DNA from: Lytechinus pictus
Taxonomy: Eukaryota
Reading direction: 5' to 3'
Assembly: GCF_037042905.1 (NCBI RefSeq)
Contig: NC_087245.1
Location: forward strand, 28,026,001 to 28,090,000
Length of the DNA: 64,000 bases
The position numbers were made by a program, and so were the translations under genes. This document shows positions 36,798 to 64,000 of the stretch, piece by piece (positions within the stretch are counted from its first letter, which is position 1; the number at the start of each line of letters is the position of its first letter). The notes under the pieces were generated by a model, which saw only the letters and a list, made by a program, of their open reading frames with translations, was not told the DNA's origin and searched no databases.

Positions 36798-36913
36798 GTG
36801 GTAATAATGGTGGCGGATCAGCATATGGTGATTTGTTCAACCCCAGTTTGTCCGGGAGTAGGGGAAGTGGGGTGAGCAAAGGAGGTGGCGTTATCCTTCT
36901 AAACATTGGTGGG
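36798..36913 (+). CDS. Exon 15
   Basis: ttcaag|(G)GNNGGGSAYGDLFNP...ILLNIGG|gtaagt. Confidence 0.85.
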
Positions 36914-37043
36914 GTAAGTCTTAAAACTTTTACTTCTGATGTTTGAAAGAGACAAAGAAGATCCCAGGATATTATATACCTGTTTATTGAAGTAGATTTC
37001 TTTTTGGGGCAAATATATCATTCGCACTCGGTATTTTCAAATT

Positions 37044-37325
37044 CTGGGCCCCATCTTACAGAGAGTTACAATTGATCCGATCAATCGTACATGTAACTCT
37101 ATGGAAATCCATCAATGTCATAATTTTTTCTACAGGAAATTTGCACAATGTCTTTTGTAAGCAAAGAGAAGGACAAAACATTTTCAAGAAAACAATGAAT
37201 GCATGAATATATATCATGGTTAGAAAATATTTTTAACAAACATGCATAAAAAATGTTGATTTTGCTGGCTTTCCATAGTTGCGATTGATCGGATCAATCA
37301 CAACTCTTTGTAAGACGGGGCCCAG
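37044..37325. mobile_element. ~280-bp MITE with ~55-bp TIRs (possibly PIF/Harbinger-related)
   Basis: ctgggccccatcttacagagagtt...gatccgatcaatcg pairs with cgattgatcggatcaatc...aactctttgtaagacggggcccag; ATT on both flanks. Confidence 0.8.
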
Positions 37326-37982
37326 ATTCTGTAGTTAATATCTCCTCCAACAATTCTACAACTCAGAAACTATCTCATCATCATCATAATAGCTTGACAT
37401 ATTAGTCTGCCTCCTCCCCATCTTGCAATGGATATATGCCTCAATTTAGGCTTGCTGCATGTTTTGTCTTCCAACTGTATGTCCAAACCTGTTTCTCTTC
37501 CATCTTTTAATGGTTTCCCGAAGATTCTCACTCTCGTAAAAATCATGTTGCTCATCATCTAGCCATATTACTAAGATTTCAAGCATCTTTTCTTCTGACT
37601 TTCTGATTATCCAAGTTTAAGATCCATACAATGCTACACTCCAAACCAAACATTTGACAAGTTATGTCCTTAAATTTTTATTTTACCTAGCTGATAAAGA
37701 TTTCTTAGGTAACATCATTTTCATTTTTTGTTCATGCTCTCATTATAATTTTATCATCATTCTGATTATTATTATGATTATTATTGTTATCATTGTTATT
37801 ATTACTATTATTATTGATATTAGTATTATTAATATTGTGATTTAAAAAGTATGTACATTTTTCAATCAAAACCAGCAGTTCTTAAGCCAGTCAGTGGTAA
37901 CCAAACAGGATTAAATGAATCAACATACGGAAAAGTTCGCACTATAGATACAAACAAAAAAGAAGAACACCATCAAATACTA

Positions 37983-39190
37983 TTTTTATGTCCCCGCAGA
38001 CAAAATCCGGAGGGTCATTAAGCGTTGCCCCTGTCCGTTTGTCCGTCCATCCGTCCCCCCGCTTGGTTTCCGCGCAATAACTAAAAAATATTAAATGGAT
38101 CTAAAAAAAAATTAATGTGTAGGTAGATGACACCAAAATACAGGCTAAGTTCCAATTCGGAGTCCGCAGATCAAAGGTCCAGCTCATTAAATATGCGAGT
38201 TGGTTTCCATGCAATAACTCAACAAATATCTAATGGATTTTAAAAATTTTGGATGTGTTGGTAGATGACACCAAAATACAGGCTAAGTCTGAATTTGGAG
38301 TCTTCAGGTCAAAGGTCACAGCTCATTGAATATGCAAGTTGGTTTCCCCATGATAACTTACATGTATGAAATATTCATTATGAAATATTCAACAGATTAA
38401 AAAAAATTTGGTGTGTAGATAGATGACACCAAAATACAGGTTACGTTTGAATTCGGAATCCGCAGGTCAAAGGTCACAGCTCATAAAATATGCGAGTTGG
38501 TTTCCGTGCAATAACTCAACAAATATTTAATGGATTTTAACAATTTTGGGTTTGTAGTTAGATGACACCAAAATACAGGCTTAGATCGAATTTGGATTCT
38601 GCAGGTCAAAGGTCACAGCTCATTAAATATGCGAGTTGGTTTCCGCATGATAACTTACAGTATGAAATATTCAACAGATTTTTAAAAATTTTGGTGTGTA
38701 GGTAAATAACACCAAAATATAGGTGAAGTTCAAATTTGGAGTCCGCAGGTCAAAGGTCACAGCTCATTAAATATGCAAGATGGTTTCCACATGATAACTT
38801 ATGAAATATTCAACAGATTTAAAAAAAAATTTGGTGTGTAGGTAGATGACACCAAAATACAGGCTAAGTTCGAATTCGGAGTCCGCAGGTCAAAGTTCAC
38901 AGCTCATTAAATATGCGAGTTGGTTTCCACAAGATAACTTGTGAAATATTCGACAGATTAAAAAAATTGGGGTATGTAGGTACATGTAGATGACACCAAA
39001 ATACAGGCTAAGTTCGAATTCGGAGTACACAGGTCAAAGGTCACAACTCATTATATATGCAAGTTAATTCAAAGTTCTAAATTTGTTCATTATATATATG
39101 CATATTGGTTTCTGCACAATATTAAGTTCAATCATATTGAATGAATTTCTGATCGCGTTAAGCGGGGGCATCTGTGTCCTTTGGACACGT
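37983..39190 (+). mobile_element. Helentron-associated (HINE/DINE-1-like) non-autonomous element with an internal array of seven ~140-bp units
   Basis: T-run start; subTIRs atgtccccgc (37988) and gcgggggcat (39162); gtcc microsatellite near 38030; 3' hairpin gtgtcc-ttt-ggacac (39174-39188). Units anchored by gatgacaccaaaata (one variant) at 38126, 38264, 38422, 38561, 38705, 38845 and 38989. Confidence 0.75.
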
Positions 39191-39462
39191 CAAATTACAA
39201 GTTCTAAAATATATGTTAGAAGTAATTAGTAACTTTATAATAAACAAAAAAGCAAGATGGTTAACGTATAGTGATATTGTTCAAATGCATATGAAAGTAA
39301 AAGGGTGTAATCCTAGATAATATCACATGATGTGAAGAATTATGAATATGGAATTTTTTTTTTGTGGAAAACTGCATGTGTGGCAACTGATTCAAAGAAT
39401 GAAACTACATTGTTTATTATGATTGAAATATCATTGAATTGTATCGAATCTTTGTTTTGTAG

Positions 39463-39613
39463 AAAATGATCTGTGATGGCATTATATCTGTTAATGCCCA
39501 TGATCCTACTGCTACTTATAAAAGTGGGGGAAGTGGTGGAAGTCTGGTAATCAAGACTAATACCTTCAGAGGTCATGGAGAGGTCGTTGCAAATGGTGCA
39601 AGTGGACACAGTG
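39463..39613 (+). CDS. Exon 16
   Basis: ttgtag|KMICDGIISVNA...GGSGGSLVI...GHS G|gtgaga. Confidence 0.9.
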
Positions 39614-40066
39614 GTGAGAATGTTTTTTTAAGCCAACTGAATAGATTTATTATGATATTAGTAGAAACCAATTGCAACTTGGAACTTTGAAACTAGTGTG
39701 ATACTTTCCTTGCCATTACTCAAATATCATGGAAACCTGAACAGTATCAATTGAATTTTGGAAATTTTTGTCTCTCTTAGTATCGTTATATCAATTTAAG
39801 GCAATATTTTAAAATTCATTAGCTTAACCCTCTTTTTACTTTTATAAACATATGTAATTCTCTCAGGATGAAATATACTTTTTGCATAATGATTTGTGGA
39901 TTGAGAGTAGATTTTTGATTTATTATTTTCTTTTGAAGTGTTTATTAAAGATGGAAAGTGTACATGTAGGCCTATATATGATTATTAGTTTGCTATATTG
40001 ATGTTATGTATTATTATATATTTCAACATTAAATAAAACTTGATGGCCATCTATTTTTTTTTGTAG

Positions 40067-40362
40067 GATCATCAACCCGATATGGGGGTGGAAGCGGAGG
40101 ACGTATGGCTTTATACATCAATGAGCCTTACAGGTTTCAAGGCACTGTTCAAGCCCTTGGTGGTGCAGGGTCACATTCTAGAGTTTCTGGAGGGCCAGGT
40201 ACTGTCTACAGGCAGTATGAGCAGGATGGCCACCTATGGAAGGAGCTGGTGTTAGATGGCAATGGTCACTCACTCAGTGCAAATACAGTGACACTTGCTG
40301 GAGCTGTTCACTATGAGTTTGACACTGTTATTCTCCTACGAGGGGCAAAGCTCAACATAAAG
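40067..40362 (+). CDS. Exon 17
   Basis: ttgtag|(G)SSTRYGGGSGGRMALY...KLNIK|gtaggc. Confidence 0.9.
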
Positions 40363-40627
40363 GTAGGCTGCTATTGGGTGTTGTCATTCAGGTACTTAAG
40401 AACTGTGGATTTGCCAAGAGAAAAGTTTGAGAAATCTCCTTTCTTGAGGAATTTTGTAGACTAATGTATCTAAGTTGTTTTCAGCCTTCATTCATGGAGT
40501 CATGCAATTTAGATAACAAAATAAATATAATGATAATAACAATGTAACTTCTGAAGGTTTTCATGGCAAAGAAGTAGAGTGTAGTGGTTTTCACAGTACA
40601 CCATGTATCTCTTGTGGGCAAATGATA

Positions 40628-40997
40628 CCCTAGTCAAAATAAGATAGTTAAAAAAAATAGAAGAAAAAATAGCCAAAAAATAAAACATGAAATATATTTT
40701 TATGCTATTTTTCCCCCACACAAAATAGTGTAAAAATATGTAAAAAATATAAAAGAAATACAATAAAAATAGTTTAAAAAATAGTATGCGCTTTAAAAAC
40801 AGAAATAAAATAGCCTATTTTCTCTATTTCACCTGTAAAAATAACAAAAAAATAGTCTGAGTAAAAAATAGGGAAAAGATAGACTATTTTCTTTCTATTT
40901 CATTTGTAAAAATAGTTTAAAAAATAGTCCCGTTTTACTAAAAATAGAGAGAAAATAAGGAAAAAATATATTTTCTCGCAGCAAAAAACTACTAGGG
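40628..40997. mobile_element. A-rich 370-bp MITE-like insertion
   Basis: Ends CCCTAGT and ACTAGGG, ATA on both flanks, many internal aaaaatag sub-repeats. Confidence 0.5.
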
Positions 40998-41293
40998 ATA
41001 ACAATAATGATAAGAAGAATGAATATTCAATCTTTAACTGCAAGTTATTTTTGTTCTACTTTGTGTCAGATGTATCTGGATGCTTGTAACATTTTAGATC
41101 AGAAGACTGTATATGTCTAGGCCTGATTCAGTAGTTTTTATCATGGAAAGCAGATGTATTGTTTCTTTTATCAAATACATTGAAGAATGGATGATATCAG
41201 AGAAAAAAGAGGGATTGTATCATGTAGTAGTATGTCTGTATAGAGAATATTGAGTGCAGGAAATTTATTGATTGTAATGTTTCTTTTTTTCAG

Positions 41294-44200
41294 GGGTCAG
41301 AAGGGTCAATAGGCTATGGAACTATTCATTCCCTAAAGGGCGATGGGACAGGAGAATTGATTGTAAAAGATCATACCGAGATACAGCTTTCTCCTGCTGT
41401 CAGCAGATCAAGACCGACCGAAGCCATATCCATACAACCGAGAGGAATCTTCATTGTGCCAAGTAACCTTGAAGTTCCTGATACTCTCTCAATACAGGGT
41501 GGTATATTTGGATTACAAGAGCTTGTTGTCTCTGGAACCATTAACATCTACAACTCTGGCTATTCAGTTTGCTCAAACTGCTCAATGACCTCAACAGAGC
41601 TGGGTCAATACCGTCTTACCAGTATCCATGTGCGTAATACTGGAACCTTTCATGTCAGGAGCAACACCTACAGCACTCAGGATGAAAGCGGGGTTCGTCT
41701 GTTTCTTACTGGGATTCTGGAAGTGGAATACGGAGGAGTTGCACGTGTAGAGAAAAGTATTGCAGGATATACCAAATGCCTTAAAGTAGAACTGTCCGGA
41801 AGTGTTGATGGATCAGGGTTAGGCTACCTGCAAGAAAGTGGCCCTGGGCGAGGTTACAGATGCGGCAATGCTGGCAGTGGAGCTGGGCATGGCGGTATGG
41901 GGAATAGGATAGGTTGTGTTCATGGCAGTGAGACATATGGTGAAGCTTGCCTGCCAGTCAGTTCAGGAAGTGGAGGTGGTTCAGGATGCACTGGCGGTCA
42001 TGTCGGTGGAAGTGGTGGAGCTGCTGTCAAATTCATCTCAATTCTGTCTCATGTAGAAGGTGATATAAGGATGGATGGAAATAATGGAGCATATACATCT
42101 GGAGGTGGCAGTGGGGGGTCTATCTGGCTTGATAGTGATGTCTTTGAAGGATGGGGTGTTCTGTCGGCTTCAGGCGGGAGTGGATCTTCAGCACGGTGTT
42201 ATAACCTTGACCATATAAGATATGGTGGTGGAGGAGGAGGGGGCCGTATAAGGACATTTTCCCCAGGCCTATATCCCATTTTGTCTGGAAGACGTGTGGT
42301 GGATGGACCAAGTGCTGGCTCTGGAACGCTCTGTTCAGATCCTTTGCTTTGCAATTGCCCAATCTCTTCTCTGTGCAGTAATCATGGTATATGGAACACA
42401 ACAACAGAAGAATGTACCTGTGGTGATGGATATGTTGGTACCTGGTGCCACGTACCATGTTCATCAAGCTTGACCTGCAATGGGCATGGTCTATGTACCG
42501 ATTCTGGTGACTGCATCTGTGAAGTGGGATATGTTGGATATCGATGTGAGCATGAATGCACCAGAAATGACACCTGTAACGGACATGGTGAATGCTCAGT
42601 ATTTGGGGAATGCCTATGTCAGGATTGTTTCCATGGGGAAGATTGCTCACAAGAATGCAGTGATGCTGGTACATGTTCTCTCCTCGGTACTTGTGATTGC
42701 AATAGCTGCCATGTTGGGGAATACTGTGAAATTGTGTGCTCGGACCATGGATCATGTGATAATGGGGTTTGTTCCTGTGAAGTGGGTTGGAGCGGTGAGC
42801 ACTGCTCCATTGCTGGATGTCCAGGTGACGATAATTGTTGTGGACATGGAGTTTGCAATTCTGCAATTCATCAGTGTTATTGCAATCCTGGATGGTGGGG
42901 TAATGACTGCTGCTCTCCAGACTGCCCAGGAGATCCAGATTGCAACAGTAATGGAAACTGCACAGCTCTGAGTAATCCCCCACAATGTACATGCTTCCAT
43001 GGATGGATGGGTCTCGCATGTGAACATGAATGCCTCCATGGGAGTGTGGTTGTTCTAAATGGAGAATACTCATGCGAGTGTGATCCCTGCTGGGTAGGAT
43101 CAGGATGCAACGTCTTGTGTTCAGGTTTTGGCTTGTGCGACGATACAACAGAAATATGTCAATGTGATCCTCTAACTGGATGGAGAGGTGATCTCTGTGA
43201 GGTCCCTGGGTGCCCTGGAATTGGAGAAGATTGCTCTGGTCATGGTGATTGCAATAGTGCAGTTCATGAATGTACCTGTGATCCTGGCTGGTCTGGTGTT
43301 GGCTGCCACATACCTGACTGCCCTGGTGAACCAGACTGCTATGAACGAGGCTTCTGCAATGCAACATTCGATCCGCCTGAATGCAGAAACTGCTCCACTG
43401 GTTTTATGGGACGTGATTGCAATGAACGTTGCATCAATGGTCAGCAGCAACCAATGGACAGTGGGATATGTGTTTGTGAGCCAGGATGGGTAGGCACGAG
43501 TTGTGATTCAGAGTGCTCTGGTCATGGTTCAATCATTGATGGAGAGTGTGTATGTGATGAAGTCTGGCGCGGAATATTCTGTGACTACCCTGGTTGTCCG
43601 GGTGATGGTATTGATTGTAGCGGCCATGGAGAATGTGACAGCTCACAACATGTCTGTACTTGTGATCCTGGCTGGATTGGAGATGGCTGCAACATTGCTG
43701 ATTGCCCTGGAGAACCAGACTGCAATGGTAAAGGTACCTGCAACAGCACATTTGATCCACCAAGGTGTCTTGACTGTCAGCCAGGCTTTATGGGACTTTC
43801 CTGTGAAGAGCCCTGTGTCCACGGAACTCAAGATCCTCCAAACAGTGGCATTTGCCAGTGTGAATCACTCTATACTGGTGTTGGATGTGATGCAGAATGT
43901 TCTTTACATGGAATAATTGTTGGTGAGCAATGCCTGTGTGATCCTACATGGTGGGGAACTCTTTGCGATGAACCAGGCTGTTACGGCAATGGCTCATCCT
44001 GCACAGATAGGGGTGAATGCAATGCAGCTTCTCATATTTGTAGTTGTGTGAGTGGATACAGAGGAAATGGCTGTGAATTTCTGGACTGTCCTGGAGATCC
44101 TGATTGCTTTGGACGTGGTGAATGCAGTGATAACTTTGAAACACCACGTTGTATTAACTGCCATTGGCCTTACATAGGAAGGGACTGCAACCAACTTTGT

Positions 44201-44551
44201 CAAAATGGCACTGAACAACCAGTCAACAGTGGAAACTGCATATGTGATGCCTGTTTTGCAGGTATGGGGTGTAATGCTGAATGTTCCGGAAACGGCCAAT
44301 GCCTCACCAACCCTGAGAGTGGACTTCTCCAATGCTCTTGCATCACAAGATGGCGAGGAGATCTCTGTAATGTGCCAGGCTGTCCTGGTGATGGGGAAGA
44401 CTGTACTGGACATGGTGACTGTAATACAGGTGTTGGGCAGTGCTTCTGCTACCCAGGCTGGATTGGAGAGGGATGTGATGTGCCAGACTGTCCAGGAGAA
44501 CCTGACTGCAATGGGCATGGTGAATGTGCAGTACCATCCGATTCTCAACCA
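41294..44551 (+). CDS. Exon 18: last Gly-rich repeat, then the start of the EGF array
   Basis: tttcag|GSEGSIG...; EGF modules (CxxHGxC...CxCxxGWxGxxC) from about 42370; donor CCA|gtaagt. Confidence 0.92.
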
Positions 44552-44977
44552 GTAAGTAGATATTTGTTTTCCTAGCATGAGAGTTTTACATACATGTAGA
44601 GTCCTTGGTCATAAAAGATAGCATGACATGAGTGGAAAATGAAAGAGATATTTAACTGAATCATTTGAATATCAAGCGCAGGAAAGAATAAGGATTAGTT
44701 ATCTTGTGTGCATGTATTATGAATCACACAATTTGATCTTCATTTAATTACAGGTTTATGCAAAGAAATAAGAGTTTGGCATTAAAATATATTACACATA
44801 ATGGATGATAATTGATCGCTATAATTAACAAAAAGAACAGAATTTCTTAATTAAATCTCTGATATTTTATCTAAAGAGAGTAAAAAAAATACTTTGCCCT
44901 AATTCATTGTATTTTGCATTCATAGATCTAATCACTTTGTTTCTTTTATCATTTGCATAACCTCTTACCCTACCCAG

Positions 44978-45347
44978 ATCTGCATTTGTGAAAACGGCTT
45001 CTTTGGAAGTGATTGTGATTTCTTTTGCATGGAAGGTGAGGTGCAGGATGAGCACACTTGCAAATGTGACAAATGCTATACTGGATTTGAGTGTAACGTT
45101 GAGTGCTCTGGCAATGGAATTTGTAGATCTGGCGAGTGCGATTGCTCCAGCAATGCACTTCAGTCTATTCTTGGAATTCAGTCTTTTCTGGGACCACTTT
45201 GTGAGTTCAGAGGATGCCCTGGAGATGATGGTTCCTGCAACGGTCAGGGATCCTGCAACGTTGACAGCCAAGAATGCACCTGTTACCCGGGCTGGACTGG
45301 AGAGGACTGCAATGAGCCGGATTGCCCAGGAGTTCCCAGCTGCTCTG
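44978..45347 (+). CDS. Exon 19 (EGF repeats)
   Basis: cccag|ICICENGFFGSDC...PSCS G|gtacgt. Confidence 0.9.
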
Positions 45348-45488
45348 GTACGTTACAAACTCTTGATAACCTTTTGATATTGGAGTGTAACTGTTCTTCG
45401 CTAAATGCTTGATTGCTTGATTTTCAGGGGCTTCTGAATTAGATTTAATTTACCTTAACAGGAAATCATTTCTTTGTATTTGAGAAAC

Positions 45489-45712
45489 CAGGGTCCTGTC
45501 GTACAAATGACTATTATTAATCCATTCAATTACAACTATAGAAAACCAGGGAGACCTGCTTTCTGATTGTGTTTAATACTCGTGCATGTGTCTTTGTCTT
45601 TTCAAATCAGAGTGCTCTTTGTTTTCAAAGGGACATAGTGTACTATAACTATGAAGAATTATCTCATTGATGGATTTCCATGATTGAGATTGATTAAATC
45701 AATGACAACTCT
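45489..45712. mobile_element. Degenerate inverted copy of the 37044-37325 MITE family
   Basis: cattgatggatttccat at ~45665 is the reverse complement of atggaaatccatcaatg at ~37101; decayed TIR-like ends. Confidence 0.5.
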
Positions 45713-45982
45713 AGAAAATTAGTCACATGCCATATGCAGCTTCCATAATTAATTTATGATCAGGCCTAATATTATACTATTCAAATCGCAATATAATGTA
45801 ACATAATTTTATCTTTTTTATTCAAAGGGTGCGCAAGATTTAAAGTCAATTCCTCCCACCTGCTCTAATAAAATTGCCAAAATAAACTTATTTTCTATTT
45901 ACTTTCTCTTTAGTGTGTTTTCAAAGTCTCCAAATGCAATGTTTGCCATGTTTAAAAATGTTGCATTAATGTCCCTTTACAG

Positions 45983-46169
45983 GAAACGGTGTATGTGAGA
46001 ATAGACAGCCAAGGCGATGTTCCTGCGATGAAGAATGGACTGGTGAAGCTTGCAGCATCTCCTGTGTCCATGGCAAGAATATTGATGGATCACGATGTGT
46101 CTGTGACCCATGCTACACAGGGCTTGGCTGTACAGAGATATGCAGTGGCAATGGCCAGTGTAATGACGG
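45983..46169 (+). CDS. Exon 20 (EGF; correct frame not in the ORF track)
   Basis: ttacag|(G)NGVCENRQPRRCSCDEEWTGEAC...QCND GG|gtagga (phase 2). Confidence 0.88.
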
Positions 46170-46474
46170 GTAGGAACTGTATATTTTAAACTAATGAAAA
46201 TACTGGATATGGGGGGTGTCTCTGGTGTTTTGTGTAGGCATAAAACCTAAACCTACTTGAGTATAGGAATATAGTGGTCCCGGAATTGAGAAAGTGGGAA
46301 TTAGTTAACCCATAGGTATATGTGTTCATTTGCCAACTTGATTATGTTATATGTATGTTTAACTAAGAAATATATGGTACATTTCTGTGATATTTAGTGA
46401 TATACAAGTGGTTTTTGCTTTAATTGTTTTTTAATAAATTCTTACTTATTGCATTTTCTGTGTTCGTATTTTAG

Positions 46475-47373
46475 AACTTGCATATGTGACTTTAAGAGTG
46501 GTTTCCGAGGTGACCACTGTCAGATAAATGGCTGTCCAGGAAATAAAACAGACTGCAGTGGTCATGGATCATGTAATACTGGAAGCTGGGAGTGTCTCTG
46601 TGATCCTGGTTGGCAAGATATTGGATGCCAAATTCCAGATTGTCCAGGAACTCCAGATTGCTCTGGACATGGTGATTGTCCTTTACCTGCATCTGAGGAG
46701 AATCCTATTTGCCATTGTGAGGATACTTTCATGGGCCATGCTTGTGAGTTCAGATGCTTCCATGGACACCCCTCTTTGCTTAACATGACATGGGTCTGTG
46801 AATGTGAAGCATGTTACAGTGGCGTGGATTGCAGTTCTTTGTGCAACAATCAAAGCAATGTATGTGATAATGGGATCTGTGATTGTGGATTTGATGGATG
46901 GAGGGGAGACGTCTGTGACAGGCAAGGTTGCCCAGGAGAAGGAACAGACTGTAGCAACCATGGACAATGCAATCTTGCTGATCGCTCCTGTTCGTGCAAC
47001 CCTGGTTGGACAGGAATAGGATGCCACATCCCAGACTGTCCTGGAGAACCTGATGACTGCAATGGCCGTGGTGTCTGTCATCCCGAGGATCCATCTCCTC
47101 GTTGCATCAACTGCAGTGCTGGTTGGATGGGAGCTGCATGTGAGGTTCCTTGTGTGAACGGAACCCAAAACCCACCTAATTCAGGCATCTGTGATTGCCA
47201 GCCTTGCTTTCATGGAATAAGTTGTGACAGCCGTTGCTCTGGTATTGGTGTGTGCTCCAGTAATGGTACCTGTGACTGCATTTATGCTGCTGGGAAGGGA
47301 GCATTCTGTGAGATCCCAGGCTGTCCTGGAGTATTTGACCTTGATTGCTCTGGAAGAGGATCATGTCTCGAAG
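46475..47373 (+). CDS. Exon 21 (EGF repeats)
   Basis: ttttag|A TCICD...GSCLE G|gtgtgt. Confidence 0.9.
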
Positions 47374-47889
47374 GTGTGTTTATATTTTAATTTTTTATCT
47401 AATATCAGGAGATACAGAAAGGCAACTCCAAAAGATATGTGCACCTAACCTCCTACATGTATACCTGGGACCTTCCTGAATTGATTAATCTTTGTTTTCT
47501 AGGTCATACGAATCGTAGTAACGCTCATAAACTATCATGGCTTATGAAGTTGATGAAGTGAAGTGAGATTGGAGAAAATTTTGTGGAGCCATTTTCCTTT
47601 TGAATGTTCTGCTCGTGATTTTTTTTCACAAACATTATTTAGCCTCTGTATAACAAACATTATGTAACATAATTATAGCATTAGTGTGTGACTATAATGC
47701 AAATAAATTAAAAGTTAATATTCCAGTGAATTCTTTCTCTGCAATGTGTGGAGTTCCAGAACAAGAAAACATGGAAGAAAACATAAGGCAGCATAAAAAC
47801 GTAAAATCAGAATTTCATAACTTTTATTGGTGCATGGCAAGAGGAATATTCCAATTATTTTGATGCAAGTTGTTTTTATCTGTCTGCAG

Positions 47890-48063
47890 GAGAGTGTTTG
47901 TGCAACCAGGGTTGGACTGGTGTTGGTTGCGAGATAGCAGACTGTCCTGGAGATCCTGACTGTAATGATAGAGGAGTTTGCTTCTCTGAGCTTGATGTCC
48001 CTGAATGTCGAAGCTGTGCTACAGGATGGATGGGCGAGGCTTGTGAGGTACCCTGTGGTCCAG
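47890..48063 (+). CDS. Exon 22 (EGF repeats)
   Basis: ctgcag|(G)ECLCNQGW...PCGP G|gtatgt. Confidence 0.9.
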
Positions 48064-48208
48064 GTATGTTCACGAAGAGTTATCCCTAATGTGATATACC
48101 AAGATGAATACTTTTTCCTTTAGTAAAGATGCAATTTTCTTAAGAGTGCTGTGAGATATTTTATGAATTTATTATGCTTTCAGGGTTCTGGAAAAAGAAT
48201 TAGTCTAC

Positions 48209-48671
48209 TACGCTTTTTCACAGGATTTTCTTAACCCCAGACTATCGCTAACCTCGTATTGTCCTTAACACTGTACTAAACTTTTTCCTTCTCACAAACT
48301 TTATGCTTAACCCTGGCTAAGAAAATGGTTGTTTATCTCAAACATAATTTAGTAATCCCTAACTAGTGGTAGCCATTCATGAGTGCTTAACTCTGATTGG
48401 ACAACAGTGCTGGCTTTGTTGCCCCTAGGGCATAAACCAAGCAATGTCCTTGGCTTAGCCGGGTTTCTTTTTACACTAGGGATCTTAACCCCAGACTTTC
48501 ACTCATAGTACCGCAATTGCTCTGCTAACCCTGCTATTTTGCAGGGCCAAATAATCCTGTACTATAGTTGGGGTTCGCCCACTTTGCAAAAACGCTATGT
48601 AAAAAGGAAGCGGGCTAAGCTTAACCCCATACCACAGGGTTAAGGACATTTTCATGTGTGTAAAAAGCATA
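48209..48671. mobile_element. Degenerate MITE-like element with ttaaccc sub-repeats
   Basis: tacgctttttcaca...cttaaccc pairs loosely with gggttaag...tgtgtaaaaagcata. Confidence 0.45.
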
Positions 48672-48940
48672 TATAAGGAAACAGAGTTATCACGTCAACC
48701 TCTTATACTTGTATTGCTTGTGATATACTGCCTTCAAATAAGAATCGATAACAAATTGATGATTAATCTGAAAGTTTCATCAGTCAACTTCGATTTTTAT
48801 TTAATCCATTGAGAAAAATCAAATGAGATAATTGTGCATGTCATCAAAATATTATACATGTTAAGTTGTTTTATCATGGTTATTAGTGGAAGTCAGAACT
48901 CTGATTATACATTTACTTTGGAATGTTTTTTTGTCCACAG

Positions 48941-49453
48941 ACCATGGCATCCAGTTTCCAATGGACAGTGGAGTATGTAAGTGTACAGACCCTTGCTGGC
49001 ATGGAGTTAGCTGTCATGACCTTTGTAGTGGTCAAGGATTCTGTACCCAGGAGGGAAACAGCCACTGTGAATGCCAACCTAGCTATTGGGGAGAGTTCTG
49101 TGAAATAGCAAGTTGCCATGGCGATGGCCGCCCATGCTCGGGGCATGGCGTTTGTCAACCAGACAGAACGTGCATGTGTGAGAGCAGCTGGTTAGGACAA
49201 GGATGTGAACTCCCTGTCTGCATCAACGACTGCAACGGATACGGCTTCTGCGATGGTTCCAGTGGCATTCCGGTGTGCCAGTGCGATGAGAACCACTTTG
49301 GACTGGATTGTGGGTATGACTGTGTGAATGGTACGGTCTTCAATGAAACCTGTGTATGCGATCCATGTTCCTCTGGCCCCTTCTGTGATCAGGAATGTGC
49401 TGGTCATGGCATATGTATGGATGACACATGTCATTGTGATCAGGCATGGTGGG
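48941..49453 (+). CDS. Exon 23 (EGF repeats)
   Basis: ccacag|(D)HGIQFPMDSG...DQAWW G|gtgagg. Confidence 0.9.
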
Positions 49454-50072
49454 GTGAGGACCTGTTATTTTTTTTCATATGTGTAATCTCTGGTCAATTA
49501 CAAAAATGCATTTCTAATTTGTTCATATTTTGAGACAAAGATGTTTGAGATTAATGCTACTTCAACACATTTATTTAATTCTTATGATATCCTTTTCGAG
49601 ATATAGGTTATATTATTTTTCGTTATAGATATGGAAAAATGTTGATCATGCGAACATATATCTAACATCTAGGAGCAGTTATTTGCACATGTTTCAAGCT
49701 CTTTATTTTCACTCACCAGTCTTCAAGGAAAGCTTAATATTTGATGGCAATATGCATAAGGAAGACAAAAGGAGGATTCGAACTTCTGTCATTGTAATTT
49801 GTAGACACATCTTGGCTATCATATGTATGATCAATTAAAGAAGGCATCCAGTATTTTATCATTACCATGACAATTGTGTTTCCTGGGGAGATTTTCATGA
49901 AAGGACTTTTCAGACGTTTTATCAGACAAGTCCTGTTTTATTCAACAGTTACCATTGGAAATGTGCTTCTCCGTCATTCAAAATCGAGAAGAGTTATGAG
50001 ATAAAATGTTGATAAAAGTCTTCCCAGGTTACAATTCTCTCTCTCTCTTTTTCTTGCTCTTCCCTGTATCAG

Positions 50073-50234
50073 GTACTGATTGCAGTTACCGTGGCTGTCC
50101 AGGTGATGGAACCAACTGCACTGGACATGGCTACTGCGATGCTCTTCGTCAACAATGCAGCTGTATGTTAGGATGGAAGGACCAAGGCTGTAATGTTCCT
50201 GATTGCATTGGAGAACCTGACTGCGGAGGAAGGG
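50073..50234 (+). CDS. Exon 24 (EGF repeats)
   Basis: tatcag|(G)TDCSYRGCPG...DCGGR G|gtaatt. Confidence 0.9.
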
Positions 50235-50663
50235 GTAATTTTTATCATTCCTGTATCAGCTCTAGAAGCCTTATTTTGTTCTTTATTGTTATTTGCTTGT
50301 GTGCAGGGGCTGCAAGACCTTGGGAAAAACTGTTGAATTTTTTTAATAAACATGTACAAACACATAAAAATGGACATCTGATTTTGTGCATGGTCACCCC
50401 CCCCCCCCCCACCCTTGCCACCAAAGAGCACATTTTGTTTGATGTTGACCTTTTGGTGTACATGTCGGGATGATTTTACATTATCACAGCAACAAATATA
50501 TAATGGAACAAATTATTATCAAATAATAAGAATCATTATGCTATACTCTTTATCATGATAAACTTTTTGTTGTTAAATTCAGTACTACAAGATTTTCTTG
50601 TTTCAGTTATTGTGAAAAGTTCGGACAGCATGCTGTTAAAGGATTTTACCGTTATTGTTCTAG

Positions 50664-51053
50664 GTTACTGCAATGGATCTTATGACCCATTACCGCAATG
50701 TGATTGCTACAATGGATGGATAGGAGAAGCTTGTGAGGTCCCATGCATCAATGGAACTCAAGACCCATTAGACCCTAACCGTTGCATCTGTCACCATTGC
50801 TTTGGTGGGTTGAGCTGTGATGTGGAATGCAACAACAGAGGGAGCTGTTCGGAGAGTGAAGGCTGTGCATGTGACCCATTCTTTAAGGGGGAGCTTTGCA
50901 ATGAGTTTGATTGTCCAGGAGAACCAGATTGCTCAGATCGAGGTTCTTGCCTCTTTAGAGATGGAGAAGCATTCTGTCTCTGTGATCCTGGATTTACATC
51001 AGAAAACTGTAGTGAACTGGTGTGTCCTGGACAGCCTCAGTGCTCAGGCTTTG
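50664..51053 (+). CDS. Exon 25 (EGF repeats)
   Basis: ttctag|(G)YCNGS...QCSGF G|gtgaga. Confidence 0.9.
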
Positions 51054-51503
51054 GTGAGAAACAACTTCTTTTGCTGTATTTACATGCATTGTTTATGATA
51101 ATTATAATGATATTGATGATGATAGTAATGATTTTAATAACATTGATAATGATGATAATAATGACAATGTTATGCTAGATTTGCATAGCACTTTTTGTCT
51201 TTGATTAGATGCTTAAGGTGCTTCATAAAGTAATCAGAGAATTAGTAACAAGGGAAAAAGAAGGATATGAATTTCACAATATATATAGAGAACCATGTCT
51301 CTCATTCAGAGCATACTTTTGAGATCATATGCTGTCCCTTAATAAAGCCATTGAGTTAAGTCCAACAATGTGTGGACCTTCCATCCATTTACACATCCTG
51401 AATGGTGCTGACAAGACAAATTTAATAACATTGCAATGTTACCATAGCAGTCATTACAACTACATTTATTATATTCATACATTGTATTATTTGTACAATT
51501 TAG

Positions 51504-51800
51504 GAACTTGTACATTGATAGATGATACGCCCCTTTGTATCTGTCAACATGGCTTTGATGGCGATGCTTGTCAGACATGCCGCCCTCGGTTTACCGGAGA
51601 CACCTGCGACCGTTGCATTGAAGGATACATCGGTTACAACACCAGCTGCAGTATCTACTGTCTTCATGGCTATGCTTCCGATCCTGGAGGAGATGAATGT
51701 CAGTGCTATGATGATGATGAACATGGCCACTGGAGTGGACAGAGCTGTCTCCAGTGCAAGAATGGATTTGCTCTGCCAGACTGCCAACAGTGTGAAAGAA
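51504..51800 (+). CDS. Exon 26 (EGF / laminin-EGF-like)
   Basis: atttag|(G)TCTLID...CQQCER A|gtatgg. Confidence 0.87.
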
Positions 51801-54604: not shown

Positions 54605-54884
54605 ACTATGTTGGAGATTGTAGCATCAGTTGTATAGAGGGCCAAGGTACCTATTCTGACCCTATGGATGGGTTAGGAGGAGAGGGAGCCCTCCAACCAT
54701 TCTTGCAGTGCCTTACGCCCCAAAACGAAACGTCAGATGGAATTGCCTGGTTTGGTTACAGGAACCTGAATACTCACAATGTGTACCTTCCAATTGGTCC
54801 TGCCAATCACTTTGATTTTGATGATTATGGTGGTCAACCCACCAAGTTCAAACCAGGTCTCCACTACAGCTCCGTACGAATTAC
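54605..54884 (+). CDS. Exon 27: start of a non-EGF beta domain
   Basis: cctaag|(N)YVGDCSISC...LQPFLQCL...AWFGYRN...GQPTKFKPG...VRI AC|gtaagt. Confidence 0.87.
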
Positions 54885-55748: not shown

Positions 55749-55878
55749 GTTCAATGACAAGGTATCAGCAACATGGTTCCTGTCTTATAGTCCTTCAAAC
55801 AGTCAATTCAGAGAGACTGCTTCAGAGGCCAACAGCACTGTCCGTCTATGCACATCACGGGATGAAGAGATAGCTCTT
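55749..55878 (+). CDS. Exon 28
   Basis: tttcag|G FNDKVSATWFLS...ASEANSTVRLC...IAL|gtaagt. Confidence 0.87.
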
Positions 55879-57177: not shown

Positions 57178-60100
57178 GAGAATCAGCTGGAATCAGCCAA
57201 TGACAGCCACTGCATTTGCAACCATGGGTATTGGGGCCCAGCTTGCCAGAATGAGTGCATTGGGGGATCAGACAATCCTTGCTTTGGTAATGGCATCTGC
57301 AATTCAAACTCCGGACTGTGTCATTGTGAAGATTCTGTCGATCAAATGTCAGCTAACTGTACCTTGTGTTCAGAGGGAAGATTTGGAATAGATTGCTCCG
57401 TGGCATCAAGTAGCCTCATAGAAGATGTGAATGGGATGCGGTATGCAGCTGCATATGGCCCGGGGCACTTCACAACATTTGATGGATCGTCTTATACTTA
57501 CCGGGGAGAGGGAGAGCATTACTTGATCAACAGTTCCATTGAGCTACAAGTTAGACTTGTGCCCTGTAGACAAGGGAAACCAGCAACTTGTATCAACGCA
57601 GTGGCATTCTCTGCAGGAAATGGAAGAATCGTTGCCATCCATGGTGGTTACACGGATAATGATGTCCAGTTCGTGACTTGGATTGATGGAGAAGAGCAAA
57701 GTATCGATTCGGACCTGCTTGGCAACGGCTTTTTGATCACCCGCCTTTCTTACGACCATTTCTTGATTTCCAAAGATGACTTCATGGACATCAGTGTATA
57801 CATCAGAGGGCGCTATATCAGTGTATTTGTCAAAACCACTGGTGCTGCATGTAGCGAACTGCATGGACTCCTGAGTTCATGCAATGGAAATCCATATGAT
57901 GACTTTGTCCTATCTAATGGAAACCACCTTTACTTAGACAGGATCAGTTCATATTCCTTGAGTCAAGACAGCATTCATCATATATTCGGACCCTCTTGGA
58001 AAGTTAGAGATTCTTCACTTCTGTCATCAATCTACCTGCATGGCAATTATCAACAAGTATACGATATTGAGGGTTCAGATGCTGGATATGCCATGTTTTT
58101 CGAGGATTCCTCCTTGAAATCAACCTCCCCTATCAATTCATTTACAGGACCTGATGTCACATTTGAACTGGATTTGAAGCTTGCTGAAGTGTCTCAAGAG
58201 TGCAAGGCTGTTTTCTCCTACTATCTGTCGGATACATCAGGACTGCTGTTGTGTGATGGTTATCTTACAATTTCAGTTGAAACCAGTCAAGTTGCTACTT
58301 TCAATATCAAGCTTGAGGTTGATACATGGTATCAGATCTCTATTCTTTGGCTTCAGTCTGTTAAAAGGCTTCAGGTGTATGCCATATCAGACTCCACTTT
58401 CCAATCTGATGTTTTTGTTGTTGATGGAAGCCTATCCAACTTCCTTGATCCCGGTGGAATCTTAGTGTTTGGTCAGTGGCAGCTGCCGTCAGGTTACTCC
58501 GGGCCATTTCTGTACAGAGGCTTCTCAGGTTGGCTCGATGAAATTAAGATCTGGAACTCTTACTATTTTGAGAATGATGTGAGATCACATTATGGTGTTA
58601 CTGCTGATATGTCAGATTCTGCTCTATCTAGTTACTTTGTACTGAACGAAGGTCAAGGGTCAGTGATTAAGGATTCAAAGTCGATCATGACGTTAATGAT
58701 ACTTCCAGAAATATGGAATCCCCCAAGGTGGCAGTTCTCCTCTGCTACTGTACATAGATCCACTGTGGCAACATTAAGAAGTATTTATTATCCTTCTTGG
58801 TCTAATCAATTAGCCCATGACGAGGCAGCAGTCTTGTGCTCTAGGATAATAAGTGATACTCCTCTATCACCATTTAGTGTTTGTTCAGATCTAGAAATGG
58901 TAGAATACTATGCATATCTTTGTTCCGCAGATTCTGCACTACACGATACATCATCATATTCTATGGAAGTTATCCTTGCATACTCCCAACATTGCAGATC
59001 TATTCTCAACTTAATGCAGTCTCCTGAACAGTCATATTGCAATGACTTTCCAGGGAGACGCTTTCCTGATTGGACAGGTCCAGGATGCAATATTCCGTGT
59101 AAGTCTGGAGTTGGTCCTAGCTCCTGTTCCTGCTATAGTGGATATTGGGGTGAAGCATGTGAGCACAGCTGCCCAGGAGGTGATGGATCTCTTGCTTGTG
59201 GTGGTGTGGGTGTTTGTCTATCAGATAATGGTACGTGTGACTGCCCTCTATCCTTTGATTCATCCTCGGATTGTTCCTCATGCACTCCTGGGTGGTCTGG
59301 GCTGGATTGCTCTGTGACTACTGTCAATAGTACAAACATACTCCAGCCCGTCTGTGCAATGTTTGGCTTTGGGCATATAATAACCTTTGATGGACTTTCA
59401 TTGTCACTAGATATTCCTGGTGAATACCAATTAGCCAGTGTTGGCGACATTGATGTCTATATCAGACACACACCATCTCCATGGTTTGACCTATCATGCA
59501 GCATAACCTCAGTTTGGTTGAAGCTCTCAGACACCAGCTTAACCTTTCAGGCTTCTTTTTCAGATGAAGGTTCTGTGAGGGTGTATTTGGATGATGATCT
59601 CTTAACTCCATCCGGAGACATGACACTTCCTTCTGGTCACATCCTCCTGATATCCTATGATGGCTATATAGTACATGATAACCAGACTACTGTGGCTATC
59701 ATCAGTCATCTGACATATTTTGACATCCAGGTGACCACACGATTTGAGATTTGCAGGAACTCATCCAGACCCTTGATCAGTGGAAACTGTGACAGTGACC
59801 CATCCAATGACCTTCGCATCAGTAAGGATGAATTCATAGATCCAGTAGATATAACTTATGAGAAGGTAAATGGGCCTTGGGCAAAATACATCAGACTAGC
59901 TCCAGAAAGTTCAACCAAGTTTGTCTACCACCATCCTAATCGTATAGATGCACAAGATTTGACTCCAGGCGGTTATGGCTTATACTTCAATGACTCAAGC
60001 TGCATTAGCGATCAACTCCAGGATGATATTTTCAGTGTAGAAGAAGATATGACTATTGAACTCCTCTTCTTTCCTATTGGTTCTACCTCTGGTTGCTTAT

Positions 60101-63100
60101 TTTCTTATCTCAATGGAAACTCTTTCTTTGCTTTAACTATCGATATAACTCTTCAAATCTATGTCTCTACTTCTTTGAACATTGACACAGGAATTATCAT
60201 TCACCCAGATCATTGGAACTTTTTATCCTTTGTTTATCACAGAGAGAGTGGAGGATGTACAATTGTTTATGTAGGTAAGAACACTATAAGTGGATGGTCA
60301 TTTATTGTAGGAAGGGGATACTTCTTTCCAGGAGGCAGTGTAGCAGTAGGTACCTGGCAAAGTTCAGATTATGAATATCCATATGAAACTGGATATCATG
60401 GTTACATAGATGAACTACGTATTTGGAAGAGAAATTTTGACATCACAACAACGTGGAGTAATACAAATCTTAACATTCAGGCTGGTATTCCTGGGCTTGT
60501 TGCTCTGTGGAAGTTTGATGAAGGAAATGGAGTAAAAGCAGTAGACATTGTAAGCCTCACCCAACTCCAGTTTTCAAGTGATAGAGGACCTTTCTTTGCT
60601 CTATGTGGTGCACCAATAGATTCAATTCCAAAATCATTTCACTACTTTGAAGTTTACGACAGATACCCAAGTTCAGAGTCAAGAAAAGAAGCATTGGACA
60701 TTTGTACTGAGGTAGTTTTAGATAAATACTTGATTGATGGATGCAGTCAGTTGGGTAGATCTGTTTCTTTGTTTTTCCTGCAGAATTGTTTCTATGACTC
60801 CTCACATATGTCAGATAATCAACTTGCATATGTGAATGCTCGTATCTACTCAGCTTACTGTGGATCAGTTCTCGATCTGGAAGTGTCACCAAAGATGGAA
60901 TTATGCGATAAAGCTCGTGGAAACCCAGATGTTTTCCTTGCGCTTGGATGCACTGATATTGGTTCTTGCAAGTTTGGGTATTTTGATGTTGCTACAGCAG
61001 AGTGTGTTTGCCTAGAAGGCTACTGGGGTTCATACTGTTCAAATATCTGTCCTGGTGGACATGAAAACCCATGTAACAGGAAAGGGTACTGTGATAAATA
61101 CACAGGAGTCTGTCATTGTCCATTGACATGGTCATCAGAGAGTAACTGTACAAAATGTGAAAGTGCATGGTCTGGGGAAAACTGTGATGTTGCACTGCCT
61201 GTGCCAGATATTGAAACTAACAATAAAACCTGTGGTGTTTTTGGCCAGGGTCACATCTTGAACTTTGATGGTGCATATTTTGATTTTAAGGAGTTTGGGG
61301 AGTATGTGCTACTGTTTGACAAAGATTCTTCTTTCTCTATTCAAGCACGAATCATTCCTTGCTACAATTTTTCATCCTGTGTCTCGGCAGTAGCTGTGTC
61401 CAATAGCTCGCATACATTCATCATTCGATCAGGATATACATCTCAAAGCAAACCACTCTTCTGGTTTGCTGGAGAGCAGATAGAGCTGAATAATTTAGAA
61501 GAAACTGTTGGACATGTTGTTGTGAGACATATGTCGAATTTTGAATACCACCTGATAGCTCTTGACCAAACCTGGACAGCCCAGATACGTATCGTTGACC
61601 GTTATCTCAACATCTTAATAAATATGGCAAGAGAATGTACTGCATTATCAGGTATCTGTGGGTCTTGTGATAACAATGTAACAAACGACATCTTCCCAGT
61701 CCATGAAGGAAAGCTGCTCTGGCAGAATCGTGGAAGATCATTGTTTTCGCCCTTGTTTGAGTCAACTTCATATAATGAATTAGAAGTCAGTGTTGGAAGT
61801 GGTTATACTTTAACCTTTGATGACACATTCCTTCAGTCAGAAAATCTGGATCTTGATTTACAGGGGTCAGTTTCATTTGAGCTCTACTTTCGAACCAAAA
61901 CTAACCATGGTGTTCTAATGTCCTTTGGAGCAAGACGTACCTTCTCCATGTACCTAGATACGACACTACAGATTATTGTTGGCACAGCTCATTTTGATAC
62001 AAATGTAGTTCCTTTCATAGACTGGAACCATCTTGTTTTAGTAATTAAGCCTTCCGATCAACAAGATGTATTTTCACTAAGATTGGCATTGATTGATTCT
62101 GATGGTCTCACCAAAACTTGGGAAATAACCATTACTGAAAATATCTTTGTCTCAAGCTTCTATATTGTCTTTGGTCAATGGCTGCCAGGTGAGGATACTT
62201 ACATTCCATCCCCTGTATCTCGTCCATTCCGTGGTTCCATTGACGAGTTTTACATCTGGAAGAAGGAGCTTTTGGTAACAGAGGTTCTTGCAAGATTGGG
62301 CAGTAGTGTACTTCCTGGCCCAGCAGACCTTGTGGCTCTCTGGAAGTTTGATGAAGGTCAAGGGAACACGGCAACAGATTTGGTTAACCAAAAACAGTTC
62401 ATGATAAGGCAGTACTCATGGAATGTAAGAACGCCCATATGGCAGTTTTCATCAGCTCCTATCAGCTTGTACTCTCCAACATATATTTTGCATAATCCTT
62501 CTGAGTGGTTTCAGTCCTGTGTGGAATTGTTTGCGACGATCAGTTCCACTTGTCATTCCGTCTCAGATCAGATAGATGTTTATCTAGTTGCATGTGCAAG
62601 GGACTATGCTTTGTCCAATTCTGAGTATGCAAGACTTGGGGTACTCCTTTCGTATGCAGACGTATGCCATCTGAATTCAGAATCTACACTGAGTTGGCCT
62701 GCACAGGATCTTTGCAATTCCTTTGATGTTTATTTTCCTCTTTGGTATGGACCATCTTGTGAATCAAAGTGTTACTTCTCATTAGACACTGATTCACCAA
62801 TATCAAACTGCACATGTTCTCCGGGAACTTGGGGAATTGAATGTGATTCATCCTGTGTAGGAGGTGTGGGGTCACATTGCAATGGCCATGGCACATGTTC
62901 TCCTGCTAGTGGATCTTGTCAATGTGAGTCTAACTGGATGGGCAGCAGTTGCGATGTGTGTAGTCAAGGATGGTTCGGAAGTGACTGTTCCCTAACCGCC
63001 AGTAGAACCCCTGACATACCTCTGTCAAGGTGCTCCATGTACATCAATGGACATATCACTATGTTTGATGGTTCTGTCTTTGAATTTTCAGATACCAGTG

Positions 63101-64000
63101 ATATGGTTTTCTTCTCTTCCTCAGATATTGAGATTCAAATAAGGCAGATTCCTTGCAACGGTTTGCCATCATGCATCACAGCAGTATCATTTGCCACTGG
63201 CACAAGTCACATGCTTTTATCTGCTCCTCATTTGCAACAATCGGATCCAGTCATCTTGCTGAACAATGTCACACTGCCATTGGAAACTGAGCTATTTGTG
63301 GGATCTACTGGTTTTTCTCTTATCAGGGTTGCGGTTGGTCACTTTGAAATAAATGGACCAAATAACTTTAAGTTCAAGATATTAAGTCCCGGAGCTTACT
63401 TCAATTTAGAGGTTTTACAAACAAATTGCATCTTCTCTTCTGGACTTTGTGGTCCCTGTCAAGTAATGGCCACATCATGTGGTGATTCTCAAGCTCTGTG
63501 TGCAATCAATAATCTCGGCTTTGTTGCTTATGCATCACTCTACCCATTAAGCTTTTCATTATCACAACAATACGGTGCCAGCTATGTGAGATATGGACCT
63601 TCAAGTTTAATATATACACAGCTGTTGGCAGCATCTCAAGCTACCTATATCCCAGTCTTTGGGAGCCCTTCAGGTTATGCCTTACAGTTCTATGAAGACG
63701 GAATCATGAGTGATCCACTACCAAGTTTTTTCTCTGCTGGACGAACCACCACACTTCAATGGTATTGCAAATTCACAGATATTCCTGGGGGTACCTTGTT
63801 TTCTGCTTCAGAGAGCAAATCATTAGCGGTAACAGTAGGAGATGATGGTAACTTCTGGATTCATGCAGGATTCGAGTCCCAAACAACAGGCATCATTGCT
63901 CCACAGAATGACTGGTTATTTATCATGGTATCATACTCCTCAGATGATGGACAGATTGTCTTCTATTGCGTCAAGTCATCTGGTGCAGTGTATAAAGCTT
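57178..64000 (+). CDS. Exon 29 (>6.8 kb, runs off the window): at least 4 EGF-VWD-LamG/pentraxin-C8-like units
   Basis: caacag|ENQLES...; I translated all 2274 codons and found no stop. VWD starts: GPGHFTTFDG, GFGHIITFDG, GQGHILNFDG, INGHITMFDG. LamG motifs: FSGWLDEIKIWN, YHGYIDELRIWK, FRGSIDEFYIWK. Confidence 0.92.

Follow-up and report, generated by a model that had tools for sequence, protein, structure and literature searches.

How a D assembly, canonically built in the order VWD-C8-TIL-E, could come to carry a whole pentraxin-type domain inside it, and what a row of such units would do, are questions raised by a giant coding exon of Lytechinus pictus. The exon lies at the end of a 64,000-nt stretch of DNA (assembly GCF_037042905.1, contig NC_087245.1, positions 28,026,001 to 28,090,000 of the forward strand), here called the window. 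It encodes three complete units and one partial unit of ~600 aa, the complete ones consisting of a VWD, a pentraxin-type LamG fold of ~220 aa, a helical bundle modelled as a C8 fold, and EGF modules. A preliminary description made from the letters alone had outlined this exon, but had overlooked that it is one part of a far larger gene filling the window. We read the units, with a probability of about 0.55, as beads 1 to 4 of a row of probably nine that forms the membrane-proximal stalk of a giant single-pass surface glycoprotein, which would serve as a structural tether or spacer.

The repeat unit

The exon has VWD motifs at nt 57457, 59365, 61243 and 63046, which recur after 636, 626 and 601 aa; the four VWDs and the spacing of ~600 aa claimed beforehand stand, apart from a third period that had been put at 600 aa. 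The inserts begin with the motif GY(A/G/T)(L/M)xF at exactly the four positions claimed (58084, 59971, 61801 and 63673), but end ~60–80 nt later than claimed, the insert of unit 3 covering residues 194–415 of the structure model. G(Q/T)W motifs are found at 58468, 60346 and 62170, and F/YxGx(L/I)DExxIW motifs at 58522, 60394 and 62227; the FGQW first assigned to every insert is present in unit 1, but unit 2 reads VGTW.

Compared with Pfam, the whole 2274-aa exon protein matches VWD (E 6.5e-30), Laminin_G_3 (E 7.3e-8) and three EGF-type models, the last in agreement with the EGF-like modules previously placed after the Cys segment. By unit, VWD scores are above the gathering score in units 1 and 3 and weaker in units 2 and 4. 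The profile check proposed at the outset had a mixed outcome, as the C8 model (PF08742) finds no match in the exon protein at E ≤ 1 and the TIL and Pentaxin models find none either.

A profile of the three window units retrieves 243 proteins at E < 1e-30 among 1.84 billion. The analysis covered 157 proteins (P numbers below), of which 78 have at least one full unit; these supply the 189 full units used for all family counts, including the window's own three and the redundant entries P0002–P0007. Names were looked up for 21 clusters. Neither in the three complete window units nor in the 189 full units does C8 directly follow VWD, the 220-aa insert lying between them.

Reading frame and retention of the inserts

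The exon was claimed to be stop-free over more than 6.8 kb, and this is borne out. An open frame on the + strand (57121–63999, 2293 codons) runs off the window end; the other five frames hold 109–175 stops each over 57178–63999, and the composition-based chance of 2274 stop-free codons is ~1e-59. A splice acceptor AG at 57176–57177, preceded by a pyrimidine tract, sets the exon start at 57178. Genomic open reading frames (ORFs) of homologues (P0016, P0161, P0178, P0186 and P0187) open at the codon that begins the window exon, with the first Cys coming 11 residues later, and end in VWD5; those of P0016 and P0161 cover ~2570–2590 aa. By homology, the giant exon would be ~7.7–7.9 kb long and hold four complete units plus the beginning of VWD5, probably ending ~1 kb beyond the window. 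The four-unit giant exon is therefore shared with a species that groups with protostomes in the tree.

Four of 24 listed sequencing runs were aligned to 54400–64000; two of these, X1 and X3, are taken as RNA by guess, none of the runs listed with this sequence being recorded as RNA. In X3, which is closely related to the window (~96% alike), contig 10 covers 55749–55878, jumps directly to 57178 with a GT-AG intron removed, and continues through VWD1 into insert 1 as far as 58521. Contig 14 (59825–62214, 0 gaps) takes in insert 2, bundle 2 and VWD3 entirely and the greater part of insert 3, and contig 15 covers 62203–64000 plus 2908 further letters. Run X1 gives short pieces of 99–100% identity, some of which bridge the junctions of VWD with insert and of insert with bundle. 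All inserts are kept in the homologue P0170, a protein of 7665 aa from a 23.8-kb contig; it is judged to be spliced since it is without the intron read-through ends present on the same-cluster genomic ORFs P0016 and P0161. That the LamG parts might be spliced out, which had been named beforehand as a refuting outcome, is countered by their retention in the probable-RNA contigs, one of them spliced, and in this intron-free homologue. LamG parts as read-through introns were rejected in view of the gap-free contigs and their presence in 189 units, and an artefact or retroposed copy in view of the spliced join and the conserved intron position.

Structure of the bead

Unit 3 was modelled with AlphaFold2 from a 35-sequence alignment (predicted local distance difference test score (pLDDT) 86.9, predicted template modelling score 0.82). 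As one rigid body, the model aligns to MUC5AC (Z 25.5, 289 residues, root mean square deviation (rmsd) 4.6), VWF D2 (Z 24.1, 283 residues, rmsd 4.7–4.9) and MUC5B (Z 23.9), the superposition covering model residues 1 to ~585–600 with the insert unaligned. Since the ~285 aligned residues exceed the VWD alone, the bundle and tail are placed like C8 and TIL/E and the insert is looped out. The model of one unit that had been proposed as a check is thus in favour of a D assembly. A two-copy complex prediction for residues 1–492 of unit 3, made with the alignment not used, scored 0.00 and is not evidence either way.

The likeness to the D assemblies of VWF, MUC2, MUC5AC, MUC5B and FCGBP (Z 20–25.5) comprises the fold and sequence of the VWD (PF00094), a packed C8-fold bundle, a Cys-rich tail and beads in tandem; the EGF-type tail occupies a position similar to TIL in the superposition. 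Unlike canonical VWD-C8-TIL-E, the window units have a 220-aa pentraxin-type insert, no central C8 Cys, EGF for TIL/E and no internal GDPH. Unlike D-assembly proteins, the homologues have a membrane anchor, and this gene has giant upstream Gly-rich and EGF regions. Cypridina luciferase (PDB 24nk/24ne) is also similar, being the best single match of the bundle (Z 8.7) and superimposing on VWD plus bundle over 224 residues with rmsd 3.4, but this enzyme is small and secreted, and lacks both the insert and the repeat stalk.

The helical bundle

Folded alone, the bundle has a pLDDT of 85.1. In a fold search of 48,161 chains, ranks 1–10 are all C8-type parts of D assemblies or of Cypridina luciferase (Z 6.9–8.7), and its language-model neighbours are C8 clusters (0.93). 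Its cysteines align in register with those of the C8 domains of MUC2 and MUC5AC, with negative alignment scores. The case for a C8 fold rests on the agreement of the fold ranks and the language-model match with these in-register alignments; together with the model, the searches uphold the earlier description of the Cys segment as C8-like. Five Cys columns of the bundle are 95–97% conserved. Between the third and the fourth, where MUC5AC D3 has five cysteines, 181 of the 189 units have none, and the bundle is modelled as a C8 fold minus the central cysteine cluster. PF26129, which we take to be a VWDE-type helical domain, is already listed on several homologues in precomputed annotation, beside VWD and Laminin_G_3, and databases may already tag the bundle in this way.

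The pentraxin-type insert

Insert 3 aligns with BACOVA_03559 (Z 18.5), the PAPP-A LamG-like domain (Z 18.1), NPTX1 (Z 17.7) and SAP (Z 17.0); the range for NPTX1, SAP, CRP, PTX3 and Limulus pentraxin is Z 16–17.7, and the ADGRG4 domain gives Z 16.8. The best laminin LG reaches Z 15.1, and a classical laminin LG was rejected as the nearest fold, its Z being lower than those of the pentraxins. Profile comparison matches the insert to NPTX1 (E 5e-11) and Limulus pentraxin (E 2e-9). With pentraxins (NPTX1/2, SAP, CRP and Limulus SAP-like) and with PAPP-A, ADGRG4 and Laminin_G_3, the insert shares a beta-sandwich and the motifs GG-x-L-x-x-G-Q and F-x-G-x-x-x-W. Unlike pentraxins, the window insert has GQW for GQEQD and is embedded in a D assembly, not free or terminal.

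The pentraxin double calcium site is not found in the insert alignment, where GQEQD aligns to GqWqp, the downstream Gln is variable, and 77% of the 189 units have Trp at the position of the calcium-ligand Glu. Glu136 and Asp138 of SAP are presumably the E and D of GQEQD. The metal ligands of SAP, according to passages of PMC4118831, are Asp58, Asn59, Glu136, Asp138 and Gln148. The family alignment has no conserved acidic column in the region of the Asp58/Asn59 loop, which was not mapped residue by residue. With GQEQD changed to GQW, calcium-dependent pentraxin-type binding of glycans or microbes is unlikely; the multivalent glycan or microbe binding first proposed stays a hypothesis, with the pentraxin-like fold for it and the changed calcium motif against it. 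The insert may instead bind independently of calcium.

Distribution and phylogeny

Named members of the family come from corals (Oculina, Acropora, Montipora), a snail (Nucella), an annelid (Lamellibrachia), a hemichordate (Ptychodera) and a sea cucumber (Apostichopus), and all are hypothetical or uncharacterized partial gene models, probably owing to the sheer size of the gene. The searches made found no function described for any of them. The same repeat unit and order are found in Ptychodera flava XP_070533132.1, Nucella lapillus KAL8620494.1, Lamellibrachia satsuma KAI0240976.1, Acropora digitifera XP_015752872.1, Oculina patagonica KAL9957092/3.1, Montipora XP_068717200.1 and Apostichopus japonicus BSL78_07877. 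In both P0170 and the Ptychodera protein P0008, eight full units are followed by a shortened ninth and then a transmembrane segment. In all, a hydrophobic transmembrane segment comes after the final unit in 24 entries, a redundant set; these homologues are single-pass, with tails of ~80 to >400 aa.

In a FastTree phylogeny of units from 15 proteins, bilaterian units cluster by position, with support of 0.988, 0.999, 0.993, 0.968, 0.993, 0.999 and 0.986 for units 1 to 7, respectively, and the last units of corals and bilaterians are joined with support of 1.0. Unit 8 is not one clade and the deep nodes are weak. The window units adjoin a 52%-identical protein and then Apostichopus (units 1–3). 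The position-specific clades for units 1–7 argue against nine interchangeable lectin copies. Given that array order and position identity have been kept since the protostome-deuterostome split, and that related arrays exist in corals, the array probably does something basic.

The literature search found no published description of a VWD-LamG/pentraxin-C8 repeat; supplements (matrisome and skeletal proteome tables, which could list the gene) and subscription journals were outside its scope. The repeat is not described in the relevant passages of PMC4224354, PMC12549020, PMC9080433, PMC4890752, PMC9382459, PMC7037938, PMC12817120 and PMC10448888. The architecture is ancient and built from known folds, and the repeat itself is without prior description in the literature searched.

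Four proteins (P0072, P0073, P0076 and P0056) join one or two VWD-pentraxin-bundle units to further VWD repeats. In P0072, P0073 and P0076 there are also canonical Pfam C8 matches, a mixed architecture linking the family to FCGBP-like arrays. A second class of ORFs, 2660–2970 aa long (P0023, P0032, P0034, P0039, P0041, P0048, P0049 and P0050), extends from inside a bundle or EGF tail to the transmembrane segment and the cytoplasmic tail, which suggests that in several species the gene has another giant exon at its 3′ end. P0071, a 7101-aa membrane protein with ten 700-aa repeats that each open with a GDPH-bearing VWD, was rejected as a relative, having no insert or bundle match. By eye, the rest of its repeat presumably corresponds to modules resembling Sushi, IPT and AMOP.

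Cleavage, calcium and disulfide features of the VWD

None of the four window VWDs and none of the 189 full units has the GDPH motif. Among the 24 entries ending in a transmembrane segment, 13 carry it in their last VWD (14 with P0004), all the named ones being corals, which suggests a lineage-specific cleavage beside the membrane in corals. The last VWD reads GNIH in Ptychodera, and Lamellibrachia is without any GDPH. In P0002, P0011, P0045, P0070, P0183, P0196 and P0211–P0213, GDPH is confined to the last, membrane-proximal VWD.

The first Cys of the VWD co-varies almost perfectly with its partner Cys of the GLCG motif: of the 189 units, 85 are aligned at the two positions, and of these 42 have both, 41 have neither, and 2 and 0 have one alone. 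VWD1 (57433–57890, + strand) lacks the two. The calcium site motif of VWDs consists of the Asp of TFD plus GLCGN..D..ND. The first Asp is found in 70% of the 189 units, the Asn in 20% and the later ND in 38%/48%; in the window the motif is partly kept in units 1–3 and not evident in unit 4.

Sites for D3-type intermolecular disulfides were not found, 181 of the 189 units having no Cys in the central C8 cluster and TIL being unmatched in the exon protein. From homology, we assume that Cys1088 of MUC2 lies in the central C8 cluster lost here and Cys1130 in TIL. Both residues mediate dimerisation of MUC2 D3, according to passages of PMC7599080.

The gene as a whole

The exon appears to be part of one gene filling the window, with Gly-rich repeats, an EGF array, probably nine units and, as judged from homologues, a membrane anchor. 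Window exons are collinear with P0170, Pecten P0226 (LOC117331103) and Mactra P0225. Homologue matches cover ~10,500 window codons, an approximate figure since matches can overrun exon ends and miss small exons, and P0170 extends 3464 aa past the point matching 63966; the sum gives a protein of ~14,000 aa. No signal peptide was located in the gene pieces examined, and the Mactra protein begins 934 aa before the first matched window exon.

The tested pieces of the Gly-rich region have no relevant Pfam, NCBIfam (three pieces) or PDB sequence match. Relatives of this region are found in Mactra, Pecten, Patiria, Saccoglossus, Diadema and the choanoflagellate Salpingoeca rosetta (PTSG_11389, PTSG_13037), as well as among many large bacterial and archaeal proteins.

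Probable role

In the tether reading, each bead would be a D-assembly variant in which the VWD beta-sandwich and a C8-fold bundle pack as in VWF and mucins, with a whole pentraxin-type beta-sandwich emerging from the VWD-C8 linker to form a side lobe. EGF-type modules would stand in for TIL/E and join the next bead. The chain would be neither polymerised by mucin-type disulfides nor cut between beads, although in corals the GDPH of the last VWD may permit cleavage beside the membrane. The anchored rod would hold the EGF array and the long Gly-rich region far from the membrane, and its pentraxin lobes could provide calcium-independent, position-specific contacts with adjacent beads, with matrix or coat proteins, or with partner cells. 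Most likely, the protein would act as a structural tether or spacer within the surface coat of an epithelium or within an adhesion link.

Several points weigh against this reading. The role is drawn from domain anatomy, and the conserved Trp at the calcium-ligand position could be a sugar-stacking residue. For the bundle, the Atlas recognition value is 2007, less than its 2300 mark; the Z-scores are modest and within the chance range for helical bundles; Foldseek on the isolated bundle gives no match at E ≤ 0.001 (VWF chains at ranks 1–6); and the Pfam C8 profile is silent on the exon protein that bears it. The packing of VWD and C8 is predicted, and the predictor could have drawn on D assemblies it had learned. 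The length of the gene is a sum of overlapping pieces, no single stored sequence spanning all, and the reading takes the transmembrane segment, last unit and signal peptide, all of them beyond the window, from homologues. The RNA nature of X1 and X3 is guessed, and the raw RNA runs X20 and X21 (a quarter of each used) have a depth of 0–2 on the exon, which gives nothing firm on expression.

Alternatively, each insert could do without the pentraxin calcium site and still bind a glycan or the surface of a microbe, the row of beads giving avidity for microbe capture or glycocalyx cross-linking. We regard this as possible but rather unlikely. The insert fold is concanavalin-type and its best single-domain match, BACOVA_03559, is a putative Bacteroides carbohydrate-binding protein; several close structural relatives, such as the PAPP-A and ADGRG4 domains, are not known as classical lectins. 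Conservation is slightly higher in the insert than in the VWD (mean pairwise identity 24% vs 19%), and the insert has the conserved Trp; however, most of its other conserved residues coincide with family core motifs and are, in our reading, core rather than ligand residues. The window inserts are acidic (K+R 9–16, D+E 20–24), which argues against a heparin-type basic patch, and GQEQD is changed to GQW with a variable downstream Gln; SAP counts Glu136, Asp138 and Gln148 among its metal ligands (passages of PMC4118831). The likeness to Sfp1 seen in the preliminary description holds only loosely: Sfp1, like Sfp2 a sea star footprint protein, is a secreted adhesive of 3853 aa, auto-cleaved into four subunits, and its galactose-lectin and discoidin domains, neither of which has a Pfam match in the exon protein, are not of pentraxin fold, whereas the homologues here are single-pass and GDPH is missing from the window VWDs and full units. 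The Sfp1 lectin presumably lies between VWD and C8 and, if so, is a precedent for an insert at this site. Sfp1 delta combines VWD, galactose lectin and C8 (passages of PMC12817120), a point in favour of the lectin. A shed or secreted mucus or adhesive scaffold like Sfp1, FCGBP or alpha-tectorin, whose released ectodomain would form a gel or matrix via D assemblies, is improbable. Mucins and VWF are indeed assembled by means of their D assemblies, and filaments of MUC2 heads arise even when the intermolecular disulfides are absent (passages of PMC7599080); the coral GDPH and the joining of such units to canonical VWD-C8 repeats in P0072, P0073 and P0076 also fit. Yet GDPH is absent from the full units and from the last VWDs of Ptychodera and Lamellibrachia, and the central C8 cysteines and a TIL match are missing. 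Least probable is a signalling receptor or mechanosensor like teneurin or ADGRV1, in which distal domains would sense ligand or force and the cytoplasmic tail would signal: the single-pass topology, the tails, the teneurin-type EGF array and the occurrence of pentraxin-like domains in adhesion receptors such as ADGRG4 are compatible with it, but the tails look low-complexity and unalike between lineages (by inspection, not formally aligned), and Pfam found no catalytic or known signalling domain in the transmembrane-ending proteins scanned.

A more far-reaching proposal, which we consider doubtful, is that the ~14,000-aa protein dates from the coral-bilaterian ancestor as a membrane-anchored lectin or receptor array of nine calcium-free, Trp-bearing, position-specific pentraxin folds, with a Gly-rich fold shared with choanoflagellates and bacteria. 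If true, it would be a new kind of binding module on marine invertebrate epithelia, in one of the largest animal surface proteins. As regards the tether reading, a D assembly would be able to take up a whole domain between VWD and C8 and to function as the bead of a membrane-anchored stalk, and for protein design the VWD-C8 linker would offer a permissive insertion site in a mucin scaffold. Since the 600-aa unit is expressible and well predicted, the question of function is directly testable.

Features of the window

The coordinates of the coding features are collected in Table 1.

Table 1. Coding features of the gene within the 64,000-nt window, in order of position.
Feature	Position	Strand	Evidence
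Exons of N-terminal Gly-rich repeat region, ~400-aa period, GGSGGxIxI motifs	4405..42200	+	Homologue matches
Exons of long teneurin/tenascin-type EGF array	42400..51800 (approximate)	+	EGF_TEN E 6.2e-65
Upstream exon of the same gene, small non-EGF domain	54605..54884	+	Homologue matches, contigs
Preceding 130-nt exon, in-frame splice to 57178	55749..55878	+	Homologue match, X3 contig, ORF comparison
Giant coding exon, phase 0 acceptor, open to window end	57178..64000	+	ORF, acceptor, spliced contig, homologous genomic ORFs
EGF/laminin-EGF-type modules ahead of VWD1	57211..57405	+	Profile positions 552–621
VWD1 and linker, GPGH for GDPH, first VWD Cys and partner absent	57433..58083	+	Pfam E 1.1e-12
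Pentraxin-type LamG insert 1 (FGQW, FSGWLDEIKIW)	58084..58740	+	Motifs, profile comparisons
Predicted reduced C8-fold helical bundle 1, five Cys	58810..59040	+	Cys alignments; fold examined on unit 3
EGF-type Cys tail 1, replacing TIL/E	59041..59340	+	Motifs, family alignment
VWD2 and linker (GFGH)	59341..59970	+	Pfam, motifs
Pentraxin-type LamG insert 2	59971..60615	+	Laminin_G_3 E 2.9e-4 on unit, below gathering score; contig 14 gap-free
Predicted reduced C8-fold bundle 2	60675..60906	+	Motifs, family alignment
EGF-type Cys tail 2	60907..61218	+	Pfam, motifs
VWD3 and linker (GQGH)	61219..61800	+	Pfam E 5.7e-10; structure model
Pentraxin-type LamG insert 3 (model residues 194–415)	61801..62460	+	Z 17–18.5 to pentraxins, PAPP-A LamG-like domain, BACOVA_03559
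Predicted reduced C8-fold bundle 3	62495..62715	+	Fold searches, language-model neighbours
EGF-type Cys tail 3	62716..63018	+	EGF_Teneurin E 1.2e-7, EGF_laminin E 3e-5
VWD4 and linker (INGH)	63019..63672	+	Pfam, motifs
Start of pentraxin-type insert 4, cut by window end	63673..64000	+	Motifs, profile

Four intronic elements were also observed. The repeat at 55462–55632, which has a tRNA-like box and heavy RNA-read cover with reads continuing into unlike sequence, is probably a short interspersed element. The high-copy element at 56147–56730 shows opposite-strand joints in reads and contigs and is probably an inverted-repeat element similar to miniature inverted-repeat transposable elements. 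A degenerate (CTTT)n tract of ~850 bp is found at 53086–53939, and a tandem array with a 144-bp unit and a higher-order period of 284–297 at 38102–39065.

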